DNA of 64,000 nt from contig CAWFOU010000001.1 of assembly GCA_963817525.1 (NCBI GenBank), positions 672,001 through 736,000 on the forward strand. The letters run 5' to 3'. The DNA is from an uncultured archaeon (GTDB lineage: Archaea > Thermoproteota > Nitrososphaeria > Nitrososphaerales > Gagatemarchaeaceae). Both the position numbers and the translations under genes were made by a program. Shown piece by piece: positions 1,332 through 34,159 of this stretch; positions within the stretch are counted from its first letter, which is position 1, and each line of letters begins with the position of its first letter. The notes beneath the pieces were generated by a model. That model did not search any database and was not told where the DNA came from. It saw only the letters and a program-made list of their open reading frames with translations.

Positions 1332-2486
1332 ATGAAACCAGAACAATTGATGCGGATGCCGGTGACCGAGCTTCTATCCGACGTAGAGATATTCCCGTCG
1401 ACCGCGAGCGTCTCGAAGGTGATCGGCTACCTCAACGAGTCGCCGCTGAGAGAGGCCTTCGTGGACGGGGGCGACGCTGCCACCTACATAGTCGGGGTCT
1501 GGGACCTCTTGAACGTTAACACCCTCGAGACCAAGCTCTCGACGCTGATGCGCCAGGTGCACCGCCTCGGCCCTAACAACACGGTGAGCGACGCGGCCTC
1601 GCTGATGCGCGAGCTGAGGACGCGCTCGATGCCGATCTACAAGGAGAGGAAGCTCATCGGCCAGATCACCTCCCCCTCCATAGTCGGCAAGCTGCTGGAC
1701 TCCGACACCCCCGGGAAGATCTCGTCGATAATGACCCCGAACCCCGTCTCCATGGACGTCTCGGACCCCGTCTCCAAGGGGAGGGAGGCCATGCAAAAGA
1801 AGAAGGTCGACCAGCTGCCGGTCAGCAAGAAGGGAGCGCTCTACGGGATACTCACCGCCGAGGAGGTGGTCTTCAACCTGATGCCCAAGGCCATCAAGGA
1901 CACGAAGGGTGCCGGCGAGACCGGAAGATACGGCGAGCCGCTCGGCACCTTCGCGAACACGGACGCCGTGACGAACGAGATCACCAGCTCGCTCCGAGAC
2001 GTGTATCAGAACATGTCCAAGAAGGGCTCGAACTACTCGGTCATATTGAGCATGGGCGAGATCCAGGGGATAGTCACGTACCGAGACTTCCTGACGGTGC
2101 TCGAGAGGAAGGGCGCAGCGAGTTCGATCCCCATGTACATCGTCGGGCTCCCGGACGACCCCTTCGAGGCCGAGACCGCCAGGAAGAAGTTCCAGGGTGC
2201 GGTCGAGCTCCTCCGCAGGAGCGTCCCCGACATATCGGAGGCGAGGGCGGTCATCAAGATGGGCGAGACAAAGTCTCCGAAGAAGAAGTACGAGGTGAAG
2301 GTCTTCCTCGTCCACCCCAGGGAGCACTACTCCTACAGCGTGCGCTCGTTCGAGCTAGCCGACGCCTTCGACGAGGTGAACAACTGGGTCAAGGAGATCG
2401 TGCAGCGCTCCAGGCCTAGGAAGCAGAGGACGCCCAACGCACGCTCCTATCCGGACGACTGGCGGCCCGAGACCGCCCCCGGCTAG
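1332..2486 (+). CDS. Tandem CBS-domain protein with C-terminal HPF/RaiA-like domain (candidate ribosome hibernation factor)
   Basis: CBS repeats (IMTPNPVS, GIVTYRDF). C-terminal ~95 aa (MYIVGL...YEVKVFL...ELADAFDEV) resembles the HPF pattern. Confidence 0.65.
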   Translation: MKPEQLMRMPVTELLSDVEIFPSTASVSKVIGYLNESPLREAFVDGGDAATYIVGVWDLLNVNTLETKLSTLMRQVHRLGPNNTVSDAASLMRELRTRSMPIYKERKLIGQITSPSIVGKLLDSDTPGKISSIMTPNPVSMDVSDPVSKGREAMQKKKVDQLPVSKKGALYGILTAEEVVFNLMPKAIKDTKGAGETGRYGEPLGTFANTDAVTNEITSSLRDVYQNMSKKGSNYSVILSMGEIQGIVTYRDFLTVLERKGAASSIPMYIVGLPDDPFEAETARKKFQGAVELLRRSVPDISEARAVIKMGETKSPKKKYEVKVFLVHPREHYSYSVRSFELADAFDEVNNWVKEIVQRSRPRKQRTPNARSYPDDWRPETAPG

Positions 2487-3581: not shown

Positions 3582-4391
3582 TTGAAAATCAGGGACGCCC
3601 TGCCCCACGTCTTCAACAGGGCCTATCCGGTCCTGGACCCGAAGATGCCCATGCTGCCCGCCGTCTCCATGCTGCGCTTCCAGGTGATTGACGGCCTCCC
3701 CCTCGTCATCGACGTCACCACCTCGAGGCCGCGGGCCCTCCACGGGTACTCGCTGCTCAAGAGGCTGCTCGCGATCGGCCAGGGGGGGTTCTGGAAGTTC
3801 ATTGAGAGGCCATGCGAGGACGCGGCGCAGAGCATAGGCGTCGTAGGCGCGGACGAGAACCTGGAGCGACTGTTCGAGGTCTTCCTCAAGGAGCGGTTCG
3901 GGTTCGCATGGATAAGCGACACGGAGCGGACGGGGGTCCCCGTCAGCCTCGCGGACGTCCTCGAGCTCTACAAGAACGGGACGCTGGAGAGCGACCTCCA
4001 GGTCAAGGACGTGGCGTCGCCCATCTTCGCCCTCCCCGGGATGACGCCCCTCAGGAAGGCCCTGCTCTTCATGTTCAGCCACAGGTTCAGGCGGGTCTTC
4101 CTCTCGGCGGGGGGTGCGTTCATATCCGACCGCAGCATCATCAGCCACATTTTCAGCCCTGCGGTGCTGCACGACCTCGCCGCCAACCCGGACAACCTGC
4201 TGGAGCTTCCCATCGCTGAGATAGAGAAGAGCAGGCCGCGGAGGGTCCCCGGACGCACAACGCTCAAGGCGGCGGCCAACACCCTCGGAGGGGACATCGG
4301 GCAGTGCCTCACGTCTAGGGGGTCTGTCATCACCCCGTGGGACATCATCATGAAGCCGTGGGTGGCCAAGAAGCTCAGGATAAACAACTGA
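3582..4391 (+). CDS. CBS-domain protein
   Basis: CBS-like repeats (VKDVASP, FRRVFL, VITPWDI); TTG start. Confidence 0.6.
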   Translation: MKIRDALPHVFNRAYPVLDPKMPMLPAVSMLRFQVIDGLPLVIDVTTSRPRALHGYSLLKRLLAIGQGGFWKFIERPCEDAAQSIGVVGADENLERLFEVFLKERFGFAWISDTERTGVPVSLADVLELYKNGTLESDLQVKDVASPIFALPGMTPLRKALLFMFSHRFRRVFLSAGGAFISDRSIISHIFSPAVLHDLAANPDNLLELPIAEIEKSRPRRVPGRTTLKAAANTLGGDIGQCLTSRGSVITPWDIIMKPWVAKKLRINN

Positions 4392-4464
4392 GCGCGGCTT
4401 CGGCTGTGGGGGATTGGAGTCGGCTGGCCCAGATTTGAACCGGAACCGGGGAAGCGAAGAAAGA

Positions 4465-4538
4465 TGGGTCAGGGGAGGTTTGAACTCCCGATTTCCGCCG
4501 TGTGAGAGCGGCGTCCTACCAGGCTAGACCACTGACCC
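4465..4538 (-). tRNA. tRNA-Val(CAC)
   Basis: Minus strand GGGTCAG-TG-GTCTAGCCTGGTAGGAC-G-CCGCT-CTCACAC-GGCGG-AAATC-GGGAG-TTCAAAC-CTCCC-CTGACCC-A folds as a full cloverleaf; TTAAAA box at 4561-4566. Confidence 0.95.
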
Positions 4539-4629
4539 GGCGGCACCGCATGGGCAGCGCTTTTAAGACGAACGGTCGCTGAACTCTTCGATTTCACGCC
4601 AATTTCCTTCGTGGGCATTTTATCCCGGC

Positions 4630-5358
4630 TTGAGTCGGATGGGCGAAGATAAAGCTCCACGAGCTCCACTTATCGTGGCGATTCAGGAGTCAGATGATTT
4701 CGGCCACTACACGGACTGGCCTCAGCTCGCCGGCTACTTTGATGGTGACGGTAGCATAAGCATTCGGAGGACATCTCGAGGAAGACCGTTCACTCTCCTT
4801 CCGGCCTTAGAGTTTACCGACATGTCAAGACGACAAATAAGGATGGTGAAGGAATTCCTGCTTTCACGCGGGATTCGTACCGGTGCCATGACTAATCGAA
4901 CTGGCGCTTGGAGGGTAGAGGTGGGCACAATCGAGGGTGTGACGAGGGCCCTAACTGCCATGGTGCCTTTTCTTTTCAAGAAGAAGACAGAAGCAGGAGC
5001 GACGCTGGATTATCTGGCTGACAAGATAAGCGGCAATGAGTTCCAGAGAATCCTTAGGGCTGCCGTGCGCAGAGGAGATAGGGAGAGAGTCGCACCATTC
5101 ATCGACCTCCCGTGGACGAGAAGTGCGGGCGCCAAGAAGGCCATGGAGCTATCTTGGAAATTCGCCGGAGGTAAGCCCTTGCTCGGGCCGGAAGGCCAAC
5201 TCGAAATCATTCGTCGCTTCGGGGCGGGGCAGAGCCAACGGGGGATTGCAAGGTGTATGGGAATTTCCCGCGGCATGGTACGCCGGACGGTATCCCGACA
5301 TACGGCTCGCAAACCCCCCTCGCCCCGCCGAGTGAGAGCGGCGTCCAAACCAGGCTAG
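4630..5358 (+). CDS. Free-standing single-motif LAGLIDADG endonuclease-like protein with C-terminal HTH
   Basis: LAGYFDGDGSI motif, PFLFKKK segment, HTH-like SQRGIARCMGISRGMVRR; lower GC than flanks. Confidence 0.8.
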   Translation: MSRMGEDKAPRAPLIVAIQESDDFGHYTDWPQLAGYFDGDGSISIRRTSRGRPFTLLPALEFTDMSRRQIRMVKEFLLSRGIRTGAMTNRTGAWRVEVGTIEGVTRALTAMVPFLFKKKTEAGATLDYLADKISGNEFQRILRAAVRRGDRERVAPFIDLPWTRSAGAKKAMELSWKFAGGKPLLGPEGQLEIIRRFGAGQSQRGIARCMGISRGMVRRTVSRHTARKPPSPRRVRAASKPG

Positions 5359-5369
5359 ACGATCGGCCC
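5325..5369 (-). pseudogene. Degenerate 5' fragment of tRNA-Val(CAC), from acceptor 5' strand through anticodon arm
   Basis: GGGCCGATCGTCTAGCCTGGTTTGGACGCCGCTCTCACTCGGCGG aligns with the intact tRNA at 4465-4538; no T arm follows; TTAAAT box at 5396-5401. Confidence 0.8.
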
Positions 5370-5418
5370 AGGGACAGTGCGCGCCTTTCGAGCCGATTTA
5401 AGCTCTGGGTTCACTATT

Positions 5419-5586
5419 TTACTTCTTGAGCCCGACCGACCTGTTCTTCAGCCTCAGGACCGAGGCGTGGCACTTCCGGCACCTCGTTGCCGAGAGCGCG
5501 TTCCTCGCCCCGCAGCGCAGGCAGACCTTGAGGAAGAGCCGCCTCTTCTGGGCGATCTGCTTCTTTGTGACGTCGGCGATCGGCAT
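5419..5586 (-). CDS. rpl40e: 50S ribosomal protein L40e
   Basis: KVCLRCGARN...RCRKC..LRLK zinc-binding motif; start taken at MPIAD. Confidence 0.93.
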   Translation of the reverse strand: MPIADVTKKQIAQKRRLFLKVCLRCGARNALSATRCRKCHASVLRLKNRSVGLKK

Positions 5587-5661
5587 CTCGTGGATTCGTT
5601 CCCAAGCCGTCAAGGACCCGCTTAAGGACTTTTCGAGCCGCGAAGCCCGGACGAGGTCTAC

Positions 5662-6537
5662 TCAGCGCCCCGCGCCCACCAGCACGGGTATCTCCGATGT
5701 CGTCCGGGCGACCCTCGCGCCGGCCCTGCTGAGCGAGGCGACCTTCGACTCGGCGGTCCCATAGTCGCCGTAGATTATCGCCCCTGCGTGGCCCATGTGC
5801 TTCTCCCTGGGAGCCGACCTTCCCGCGATGTAGGCGACCACGGGCTTTGCGAACCCGCTGTCGAGGATGTGCTCCGCCAACCTCTCCTCGGCGTCCCCGC
5901 CTATCTCCCCGACCACGACCACCGACCTCACCTCGTCCATTGTCGCGGCCCAGTCGAGGCACTCCGGTAAGGTCGTACAGTTCACAGGGTCTCCCCCCAC
6001 GCCCAGCGCCACGTGCTGTCCGAGGCCGCTCCTCGAGAGGGCGTCGGCCACCTCGTACATCAGCGTCCCGCTCCGGGAGAAGAGGGCGACCCCGCCCTCC
6101 CGAAAGGAGGGGGCGGGCATTATCCCGAGCTTCAGCTGCTTCGAAGGGACTATCACGCCAGGGGTGTTCGGACCTATCACCCGCGCTCCAGTCTCCTGGC
6201 AGAGGCGAATCATCTTCAAGGTGTCTCGGATGGGGACATGCTCCGTTATCGCGACGAGGAGCCGTACCCCCGCCCCCACCGCTTCCTCGGCGGCCGAAAG
6301 GAGAGTGGGAGCGGGCACGAAGAGCACCGAGGCCCTCGCGCCAGTCCTCTCGACGGCCTCCTTCACCGTGTCGAAGACGGGCACCCCCTCGACGACCATC
6401 CCGCCCTTGCCCGGCGTGACGCCCGCGGCCACCCTTGTGCCGTACTCGCGCATCAGCCCCGCGTGTAGGCTGCCGTACCTGCCGGTGAGACCCTGGACGA
6501 GGACCGGGTCGCCCTCCCCCGGCAGCGCGAAGCTCAA
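5662..6537 (-). CDS. sucD: Succinyl-CoA synthetase alpha subunit
   Basis: QGLTG, GVTPGKGG, GPNTPG, SRSGTL, MGHAGA (phospho-His). Confidence 0.95.
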   Translation of the reverse strand: MSFALPGEGDPVLVQGLTGRYGSLHAGLMREYGTRVAAGVTPGKGGMVVEGVPVFDTVKEAVERTGARASVLFVPAPTLLSAAEEAVGAGVRLLVAITEHVPIRDTLKMIRLCQETGARVIGPNTPGVIVPSKQLKLGIMPAPSFREGGVALFSRSGTLMYEVADALSRSGLGQHVALGVGGDPVNCTTLPECLDWAATMDEVRSVVVVGEIGGDAEERLAEHILDSGFAKPVVAYIAGRSAPREKHMGHAGAIIYGDYGTAESKVASLSRAGARVARTTSEIPVLVGAGR

Positions 6538-34070: not shown

Positions 34071-34159
34071 GGTGGGGTGGCGGAGCGGTTACGCGTGCGC
34101 CTGCAGTTGTCGGCGAGGCCGGGAGCGCATTCACGTGGGTTCGAGTCCCACCCCCACCT
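34071..34159 (+). tRNA. tRNA-Cys(GCA) with 17-nt intron at 37/38 (34107-34123)
   Basis: GGTGGGG/CCCCACC acceptor, U73 discriminator, TGCGC/GCGCA anticodon stem around CT-GCA-G[intron]A, GTGGG-TTCGAGT-CCCAC T arm. Confidence 0.9.

Follow-up and report, generated by a model that had tools for sequence, protein, structure and literature searches.

Free-standing endonuclease genes of mitochondria, such as that of Allomyces atp6, insert in protein genes and bring along a replacement gene end, the native piece staying behind as a pseudogene. There the target is a protein gene and the replacement is in-frame and partial (3'), unlike the archaeal locus described here, in which an RNA gene is disrupted and the substitute is mostly a whole gene with its own putative promoter. 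This locus lies in a window of 64,000 nucleotides (the whole stretch of DNA that was analysed; GenBank assembly GCA_963817525.1, contig CAWFOU010000001.1, positions 672,001 to 736,000) from an uncultured archaeon of the Gagatemarchaeaceae, and consists of an 874-bp cassette (4451-5324), with an antisense LAGLIDADG endonuclease gene and a complete tRNA-Val(CAC), inside a former resident tRNA-Val(CAC) gene, at the boundary of its variable loop and T stem.

By analogy, the nearest functional counterpart of this locus appears to be SegB of phage T4, whose recognition site is reported to include the conserved T-psi-C stem-loop part of tRNA genes and whose activity propagates the tRNA genes that flank it (PMC2330249). 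Like the gene studied here, segB is a free-standing endonuclease gene among tRNA genes, and its homing carries neighbouring tRNA genes along and displaces the tRNA region of the recipient. SegB is a GIY-YIG enzyme encoded between genes of a phage genome, whereas the window has a LAGLIDADG gene in an archaeal chromosome, situated inside its target tRNA gene, both halves of which are left as stubs, and accompanied by a substitute with the same anticodon.

A second comparison is offered by the tRNA-Thr(GGU) locus of Caldiarchaeum subterraneum, where the original study reports a 5' tRNA fragment, a 1.9-kb insert with an 813-bp open reading frame (ORF) and a complete tRNA, polymorphic in the population and explained by plasmid integration, together with tRNA introns at 45/46 (Sugahara et al. 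2012; PMC3293823). The two loci share the 5' fragment, an insert with one DNA-binding ORF and the complete tRNA, with population heterogeneity in Caldiarchaeum; unlike the window, the Caldiarchaeum insert includes a repeated 545-bp region and has no 3' stub, and its ORF 'b' lies on the same strand as the tRNA and is classed as a recombinase only by SVMProt. In the literature that we searched, no archaeal LAGLIDADG gene is described as carrying or replacing a tRNA gene, and the variant of intron-less homing considered here, in which a free-standing archaeal LAGLIDADG gene comes with a substitute for the disrupted tRNA gene, is new.

Results

A cassette between two stubs of a tRNA-Val gene

Read along the minus strand, the locus runs from rpl40e through a TATA-like box, a 5' tRNA-Val(CAC) stub, the antisense ORF of a LAGLIDADG protein with a helix-turn-helix (HTH), a second TATA-like box and a complete tRNA-Val(CAC) to a decayed T-arm/acceptor stub. 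The initial annotation, made from the letters of the window, had named both TATA boxes, the 5' piece, the antisense ORF, the complete tRNA and the T-arm remnant, and all of them lie where it had placed them.

The 5' stub (5325..5369, minus strand; 45 nt, tRNA positions 1-43) comprises the 5' acceptor strand GGGCCGA, the D arm and a complete anticodon arm with the anticodon CAC. It is identical to the complete tRNA at 33/36 bases (expect value, E, 0.002; blastn-short against the whole genome), and the Rfam tRNA search did not report it even at E 10. The lack of purine 37 that the initial annotation had read as a feature of the fragment is real in the window, where position 37 has changed from A to T, and reflects late decay in this genome only, the corresponding stub of the congener G022 having A37. 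A TTAAAT hexamer (5396..5401, minus strand), putatively the promoter element of the resident gene, lies 26 nt upstream of the stub and is also found, at the same spacing, before the single tRNA of cassette-free alleles. The possibility that the stub is one half of a split, trans-spliced tRNA was rejected: no 3' half in which a T arm precedes a strand complementary to the acceptor of the stub was found in the genome, the 11 pattern matches being coding sequence or other complete tRNAs.

The ORF (4630..5358, plus strand; 242 aa) runs into this stub, its TAG stop (5356-5358) being the antisense of CTA in the D loop, so that the reported position of the stop inside the tRNA fragment was correct; the final 11 codons together with the stop are an antisense reading of the stub. 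The ORF and the complete tRNA, hereafter the cargo, diverge from a common 91-bp spacer with a TATA-like box on either side: TTTTAT (4619..4624, plus strand), which as read from the sequence may serve the ORF, and TTAAAA (4561..4566, minus strand), 22 nt upstream of the first base of the tRNA. A TATA-like hexamer precedes the cargo at the same 22 nt in the congeners G022, G019, G006 and G012 and in the metagenome contig L077, and at 24 nt in G021.

The cargo itself (4465..4538, minus strand), called by ARAGORN and scoring 61.5 bits with the Rfam tRNA model, is followed by a 14-nt linker (4451..4464, minus strand) that resembles its counterparts across the two cassette types defined below, a T/C-rich ...TTCGCTTC-like linker being common to the window genome, G022, G006 and G017. 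The 3' stub (4420..4450, minus strand) consists of a T-arm-like remnant (4450-4428) with the T loop TTCAAAT, followed by a 7-nt acceptor-like strand, CCAGCCG, and an A, down to 4420. It is decayed, with a 6-nt duplication in the T arm and only 4/7 acceptor pairs with the 5' stub, and its likeness to the 3' end of the tRNA-Val(TAC) of the same genome (23/25 bases identical) reaches by itself E 0.14 (blastn-short, whole genome). The homologous 3' stubs of G022, G006, G019 and G012, in contrast, have an intact T arm and form 7/7 acceptor pairs with their 5' stubs.

Logan contigs of three soil runs, which may include the source sample of the genome, bridge every junction with zero mismatches; thus, the arrangement is not an assembly artefact.

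Both host flanks are conserved. Upstream, rpl40e (ribosomal protein L40e; 5419..5586, minus strand) encodes 55 aa that are 98-100% conserved across congeners, with a conserved ATG start at 5586 (the ORF as listed extends to 5613) and a Pfam Ribosomal_L40e match below the cut-off (E 3.5e-4). Downstream, a convergent ORF of 269 aa (3582..4391, plus strand) has its stop (4391) 28 nt beyond the 3' stub and matches no Pfam or NCBIfam family at default thresholds; the CBS match that could stand behind its earlier label 'CBS' is sub-threshold (E 0.11; 13.3 bits against a cut-off of 24).

Cassette-free, filled and endonuclease-loss alleles in one genus

Using the 269-aa ORF as an anchor in 60 relatives and the window genome, we found orthologues at 84-94% identity in 10 congeners and read the interval up to rpl40e in each of these. 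The 11 genomes of the genus that hold the locus comprise four empty alleles, four filled alleles and three in which the endonuclease gene has been lost. The empty alleles, predicted beforehand as a single tRNA-Val resembling the GGGCCGA fragment, were indeed found: G014 and G009 (acceptor GGGCCGA) and G018 and G020 (GGGCCGG) each hold one tRNA-Val(CAC) of the stub's type behind the resident TTAAAT box, with no endonuclease ORF, and the 5' stub of the window agrees with the 5' part of the single tRNA in G014 and G009. The filled alleles (window genome, G022, G006 and G019) share the resident promoter, 5' stub, antisense ORF, TATA-like box, complete tRNA, linker and 3' stub, and the metagenome contig L077 is a further filled allele adjoining the same 269-aa gene. 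The right-hand junction is constant, just 5' of the T stem, in the window genome, G022, G006, G019 and G017.

The three remaining alleles lack the ORF and keep the incoming tRNA, with both stubs in G012, the 3' stub only in G017 and no stubs in G008. Relatives of this kind, with the tRNA and fragment in place but no ORF, had been named beforehand as evidence that would speak against homing; to some extent they do exist, and are explained as loss derivatives because G012 aligns to G006 on both sides of the ORF gap. The alignment covers rpl40e and the first 21 nt of the 5' stub (90% identity), the cargo promoter and tRNA (94% identity) and the 3' stub (29/29), with 89 bp in G012 in place of the 735 bp of G006 that contain the ORF. 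In G017 the resident promoter leads straight into the incoming tRNA, after which come the linker and 3' stub, and in G008 the order is sucD, rpl40e, cargo-type promoter and incoming tRNA. Thus, the comparison of empty and filled alleles supports the proposal of the initial annotation that a free-standing homing endonuclease entered the resident tRNA gene and carries or created a diverged replacement tRNA.

The locus varies in other respects as well. Only G018 (L007) and G022 (L015/L031) have an additional gene of ~1.1 kb, apparently for a membrane protein, in the space separating the tRNA locus from the 269-aa ORF, a second insertion/deletion polymorphism at this place. In one soil-run contig, the sequence of a second strain parts from that of the window 4 nt past the 269-aa ORF. 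Over window positions 5000-5120, the endonuclease ORF occurs in the soil run X4 in two versions, of which one matches the window exactly and the other has 13 differences in 121 nt; at least two cassette-carrying strains therefore coexist in this soil.

Introns at the insertion site

The tRNA-Val(CAC) genes of two empty alleles are interrupted at position 44/45, within a few nucleotides of the cassette site in the other genomes: the 22-nt insert of G014 is a strict hBHBh' intron and the 19-nt insert of G009 a relaxed bulge-helix-bulge (BHB) intron. Departures at or next to the junction are seen in three of the four empty alleles (these two introns and one T-stem variant), four alleles being too few to judge, and the 44/45 introns of G014 and G009 may represent protection of the target site or a scar.

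These introns raise the question of whether the endonuclease gene and second tRNA landed in a pre-existing BHB intron at 44/45 of an outer gene that was at first spliced and later decayed, or, in another form of the same idea, whether the short 44/45 introns are the remains of such an insert. The orthologous introns, a similar insert in the inner tRNA of G021 and the retention of the 3' end of an intron before the ORF in the outer copy of that genome all fit such an origin, as do the closeness of the cassette to 44/45 and the G022 locus, whose outer exons are otherwise intact and pair 7/7 in the acceptor. The folding evidence points the other way. No consistent BHB spans the insert (no candidate in G006, one weak in G019, five weak in G022), none of the candidates restores a variable loop, and the many matches in the window genome are G runs pairing with C/T runs. 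Moreover, the ORF is on the plus strand, antisense to both tRNA copies and both stubs, the joined exons of the window genome would lack a variable loop and pair at just 4/7 in the acceptor, and the 5' stubs of G006 and G019 are truncated, the former without the 3' strand of the anticodon stem and the latter without the anticodon; nor do the short introns show convincing similarity to the cassette ends. A giant spliced BHB intron was therefore rejected, on the missing motif and variable loop, the antisense ORF and the truncated stubs of G006 and G019. Since the cassette coincides with a real intron position, an origin inside an intron keeps some probability, and we regard it as unlikely.

The cargo tRNA and its types

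Two types of cargo accompany the cassettes. Type A, with the acceptor GGGTCAG/CTGACCC and the T stem GGGAG/CTCCC, is present in the window genome, G022, G019, G017 and G008 (89-96% identity), and type B, with the acceptor GGGCCGG and a 19-20-nt intron at 28/29, in G006, G012 and L077. All complete cargo copies exceed the Rfam tRNA cut-off (61.5-63 bits), and the differences of G019 and G008 from the window cargo include paired changes in the anticodon stem that keep its pairing. In a pattern scan of the whole genome, which is 95% complete, the cargo was the sole properly paired CAC anticodon arm, the scan being blind to introns inside the arm. Given its Rfam score, the compensatory stem changes and its position as the only intact CAC arm found, the cargo appears from its sequence to be functional.

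The type B cargo of G012 (L073, ~2905-2999) lacks one base of the anticodon loop by comparison with G006, and ARAGORN miscalls the resulting 6-nt loop as tRNA-Arg(tct); this copy is either a dying gene or an assembly error.

Introns obscure other tRNA genes of this genome. The tRNA-Val(TAC) at C7:856711-856817 (L004), interrupted by two short introns, one near 28/29 and the other in the variable region, is reported by neither ARAGORN nor the Rfam tRNA model, and since no more than 27 tRNA genes exceed the Rfam cut-off in this genome (2.8 Mb, 95% complete), many of its tRNAs are probably hidden by multiple introns. Window positions 34071-34159 are called by ARAGORN as tRNA-Leu(cag) without introns and as tRNA-Arg(gcg) when a 17-nt intron is allowed. 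With introns allowed the program also produces false long-intron tRNAs; one of these, a 'tRNA-Lys' with a 1020-nt intron at the family locus L047, was rejected, being really a separate multi-intron tRNA after the ORF.

A second location of the element

The ORF clade of the cassette also has a member (49% identity) in G021, where the genomic surroundings differ and the ORF is again flanked by a 5' copy and a complete gene of tRNA-Val(CAC). The outer 5' copy and the inner gene are identical at 42/43 positions; the outer copy reaches variable-loop position 47 at the ORF, where the 3' end of the intron sequence is retained, the inner gene has a 44/45-type insert, and there is no 3' stub. Thus, the element tracks the tRNA gene and not the rpl40e neighbourhood. 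With this genome included, a substitute tRNA accompanies the ORF in all five close homologues (at least 49% identity), head-to-head and with the CAC anticodon, in agreement with the tRNA linkage that had been anticipated. Two architectures are seen: the substitute is either an entire gene or a 5' part alone, joined in the latter case to the 3' part of the resident gene. In both, the ORF-side junction lies at the boundary of variable loop and T stem.

Duplicated tRNA ends also suggest integration of a virus or plasmid into the tRNA gene by an integrase, with the stubs as att-type duplications and the LAGLIDADG gene as a passenger or leftover. Such an event would have the 5' stub repeat the beginning of the complete tRNA in direct orientation, as it does, and G021, with its 5' duplication and no 3' stub, would by itself fit a single 5' repeat; the Caldiarchaeum tRNA-Thr locus has the same outline and is read as a pNOB8-type integration in that study (PMC3293823). 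Yet the 874-bp cassette contains the LAGLIDADG ORF and tRNA only: ORF, Pfam and NCBIfam scans returned LAGLIDADG and HTH matches and no integrase or transposase domain, the only match to a transposase family (NCBIfam IS21, 21.5 bits against a cut-off of 160) being confined to the C-terminal HTH region. Furthermore, att recombination does not produce a 3' stub beyond a complete tRNA, the same small unit recurs in five genomes and in metagenome contigs, and the ORF is under purifying selection with a conserved catalytic motif. We consider integration of this kind improbable.

An I-CreI-like protein under purifying selection

The protein passes the Pfam LAGLIDADG_3 cut-off (24.9 bits against 22.5), which its relatives L001, L043 and L034 do not, and has sub-threshold Pfam matches to HTH_23 and Sigma70_r4 at its C-terminus. 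It contains a single motif, LAGYFDGDG (residues 33-41), whose D40 aligns with D20 of I-CreI, which we take to be the catalytic residue; the nearest solved structures by sequence are I-CreI variants (E 0.008-0.2). G39, D40, G41 and a KK pair (117-118) are invariant in 28 aligned family sequences. An AlphaFold2 model built on this alignment (predicted local distance difference test, pLDDT, 86) has an alpha-beta-beta-alpha-beta-beta-alpha core, with helices (H) and strands (E) predicted at H30-40, E41-46, E57-64, H67-79, E88-98 and H101-114, followed by a three-helix C-terminal bundle. Foldseek placed the homodimeric homing endonucleases I-CreI, I-CvuI, I-MsoI and the archaeal I-Vdi141I at the top (from E 2.6e-7; template-modelling score about 0.6 on the target), among 88 PDB chains at E 0.001 or better.

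A homodimer model of residues 24-165 scored 0.82 against 0.52 for the best control, a mark reached by 20/30 solved homodimers and 1/23 monomers; three runs shared at least 95% of contacts, the pLDDT of the partner was 90, and the modelled interface (residues 24-40, 64-72 and 114-119) passes through the motif helix. This result may reflect mere likeness, since I-CreI dimers are already solved. The protein is thus predicted to have an I-CreI-like fold and to form a homodimer. Like I-CreI, I-CvuI, I-MsoI and I-Vdi141I, to which its sequence identity is ~20%, it has one LAGLIDADG motif with the catalytic Asp, the same order of core elements and a predicted symmetric dimer; unlike those enzymes, which are encoded in the sense orientation in group I or archaeal rRNA introns and depend on splicing, it is encoded by a free-standing, antisense gene and carries an additional HTH at its C-terminus. 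Models of group I and II introns gave no match in positions 4000-6000 at E 10 or better, and the gene appears on this sequence evidence to be free-standing, outside any self-splicing intron or intein.

Translation probably begins at GTG 4675 rather than at TTG 4630, because in G022 the long form is interrupted by a TAG at codon 8, the N-termini of homologues lie 17-19 residues ahead of the motif, and the TTTTAT box is at 4619-4624.

Compared with G022, the ORF has a nonsynonymous divergence (dN) of 0.034 and a synonymous divergence (dS) of 0.235, and the resulting dN/dS of 0.145 indicates purifying selection. Compared with G006, dS is 2.5 and dN 0.275 in the ORF against 0.73 and 0.047 in the flanking 269-aa gene, and compared with G019 the dS of the ORF is saturated while that of the flank is 0.85. 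The ORF is thus far more diverged between hosts than the flanking genes. Together with the differing cargo types and left junctions, this excess divergence argues, at the level of sequence, for more than one invasion by diverged cassettes.

A family found near structural RNA genes

Relatives of the ORF occur in 27/36 other genomes of the taxonomic family, 1/24 of other families of the order and 5/301 sampled across the class. The window genome has four further matches, three of which are family copies (E 1e-10 or better) and the fourth, on C8, a match at E 0.066. L001 is intact. L002 (C7:1043500-1047500, ORF 1722-2234, minus strand) is truncated, with no usable start before the LAGLIDADG motif and no C-terminal HTH, and lies between tRNA-Ala(TGC) (41 bp, same strand) and tRNA-Ile(GAT) (~110 bp, head-to-head), where no tRNA fragments were seen. 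L003 (C7:877500-882000, ORF 1999-2523 with a fragment at ~1925-1972) is frameshifted and has no adjoining RNA gene, being located between the dihydrolipoamide acyltransferase (E2) and E1-beta genes of a pyruvate/2-oxoacid dehydrogenase operon. Another copy, L052, is also truncated. A word-indexed search of 5.8 billion proteins returned 16 homologues, of which 13 were aligned, and seven of these environmental sequences end in ...VRAAS, ...VRATS or ...ARATS, the antisense of a tRNA-Val stub.

Among 33 family loci (30 in relatives and the three further copies of the window genome), a structural RNA gene lies within 1.5 kb in 19 and within about 220 bp in 13, loci of one clade not being independent; as a chance scale, 36 detectable RNA genes in 2.8 Mb predict by simple arithmetic hits in ~5% of 3.6-kb windows, and a crude tRNA detector was positive in 16/300 random windows. 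The 13 close loci comprise five tRNA-Val, three signal recognition particle (SRP) RNA genes in head-to-head orientation at 101-130 bp, two RNase P RNA genes at 38 and 215 bp and three other tRNAs. Independent metagenome loci have such a gene within about 200 bp in 6/25 cases: RNase P RNA 188-202 bp upstream in three, SRP RNA head-to-head at ~180-190 bp in two and a type B tRNA-Val in one. The five Val-linked ORFs form one clade (SH-aLRT 100) and the SRP-linked copies another (SH-aLRT 99); SRP (7S) RNA linkage, head-to-head at 100-190 bp, is seen at L045, L048 and L049 in three genomes and at L079 and L081 in metagenome contigs.

No degenerate endonuclease relic was found at the SRP and RNase P loci of the window genome. 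Its SRP locus has no family copy and in its place a 619-bp stretch that looks by eye like a small gene for a hydrophobic/membrane protein. In G020 (L043, C12) a family copy lies 38 bp upstream of the RNase P RNA gene, where the window genome (L060, C7:770008-773295) has a 137-bp spacer, a clean presence/absence difference at a second essential RNA gene.

Repeated head-to-head placement with RNA genes across a common promoter region, a C-terminal HTH and purifying selection on the ORF could also describe a domesticated LAGLIDADG/HTH protein that binds DNA and regulates the adjoining RNA genes, no longer mobile, the broken tRNA being the scar of an unrelated duplication. We find this very hard to reconcile with a gene whose presence varies among close congeners at one locus, which is inserted inside another gene with both stubs left, and whose synonymous divergence is far above that of the flanks. 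The invariant catalytic Asp, the broken copies L003, L002 and L052 and the absence of the family from most of the order and class likewise speak against a purely regulatory role.

Discussion

We propose that the cassette of the window is a free-standing homing endonuclease element that compensates for the tRNA gene it destroys by carrying a substitute, a reading to which we assign a probability of roughly 70%. In a cassette-free genome, the enzyme would cut the intact resident tRNA-Val near positions 44-49, and the break would be repaired from a cassette-bearing allele, through homology in the tRNA stubs and in the flanks on the rpl40e and downstream sides, so that the endonuclease gene would be copied in together with the substitute tRNA. 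As its variable loop and T stem differ from those of the resident gene, the substitute is presumed to be uncuttable. By supplying the lost tRNA function it would make invasion nearly neutral, the role that self-splicing has for intron- or intein-borne endonucleases. Later, the outer stubs would decay, as in the window genome, and the endonuclease gene would then be lost, leaving the incoming tRNA as the new resident gene. DNA that encodes a stem-loop may offer near-palindromic sites that suit a homodimer.

Several points weigh against this model. Cleavage, its site, the immunity of the cargo and copying by repair are steps that we infer by analogy. A substitute is needed less strictly than the model supposes, because tRNA-Val(UAC) could read GUG by wobble. 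At the locus itself, the left junction varies, following tRNA position 43 in the window genome and G022, 38 in G006 and 34 in G019, and therefore requires later erosion or separate events; the arrangement of G017 is not one that simple recombination between repeats yields; and G018 retains a stub-like, uninterrupted and apparently susceptible tRNA-Val gene. No contig that skips the cassette was seen in four soil runs of one study, in which contigs are short and of low depth and minor variants are dropped. Gains and losses are uncountable on the host tree from the 269-aa gene, none of whose branches attained the required support, whether an outgroup was included or not. In the wider family, a stub together with a complete copy was found only in the Val clade, the other members showing adjacency and no partial duplicates of RNase P RNA, SRP RNA, 5S RNA or other tRNAs. 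Finally, one of the groups near RNase P RNA has a gene between itself and that RNA, and lies 5.8 kb away in the window genome, so that part of the RNA linkage is conserved synteny.

Homing with a substitute tRNA would widen the known habits of homing endonucleases, in that an archaeal free-standing LAGLIDADG gene appears to neutralise its own damage through a substitute gene. More speculatively, and with more doubt than conviction, we suggest that homing endonucleases can persist within essential genes not only through self-splicing introns and inteins but also, as a third option, by bringing a substitute copy of the gene, here with its own promoter. The whole archaeal LAGLIDADG-HTH family might then specialise on structural RNA genes (tRNA, SRP RNA, RNase P RNA), whose stem-loops would be conserved near-palindromic sites, and its activity might keep tRNA alleles turning over, strand halves of tRNA genes as orphans and favour or generate non-canonical tRNA introns, those at 44/45 being an example. 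In practical terms, the family may be a source of compact meganucleases, apparently homodimeric, whose natural targets lie in RNA genes of high conservation.

For Asgard archaea, a 2026 preprint concludes that the manner in which tRNA introns arrive is still open; if the broader conjecture were true, it would supply a definite path by which archaea come to have tRNA introns and split tRNA genes. The locus bears on how archaeal tRNA genes become interrupted, split or replaced, a matter for which the 2012 Caldiarchaeum study could only invoke an unseen plasmid (PMC3293823). Here, one genus preserves all the stages: a target that is still intact, an invaded gene of which both halves remain, alleles from which the endonuclease gene has gone, and a tRNA gene supplanted by a foreign allele.

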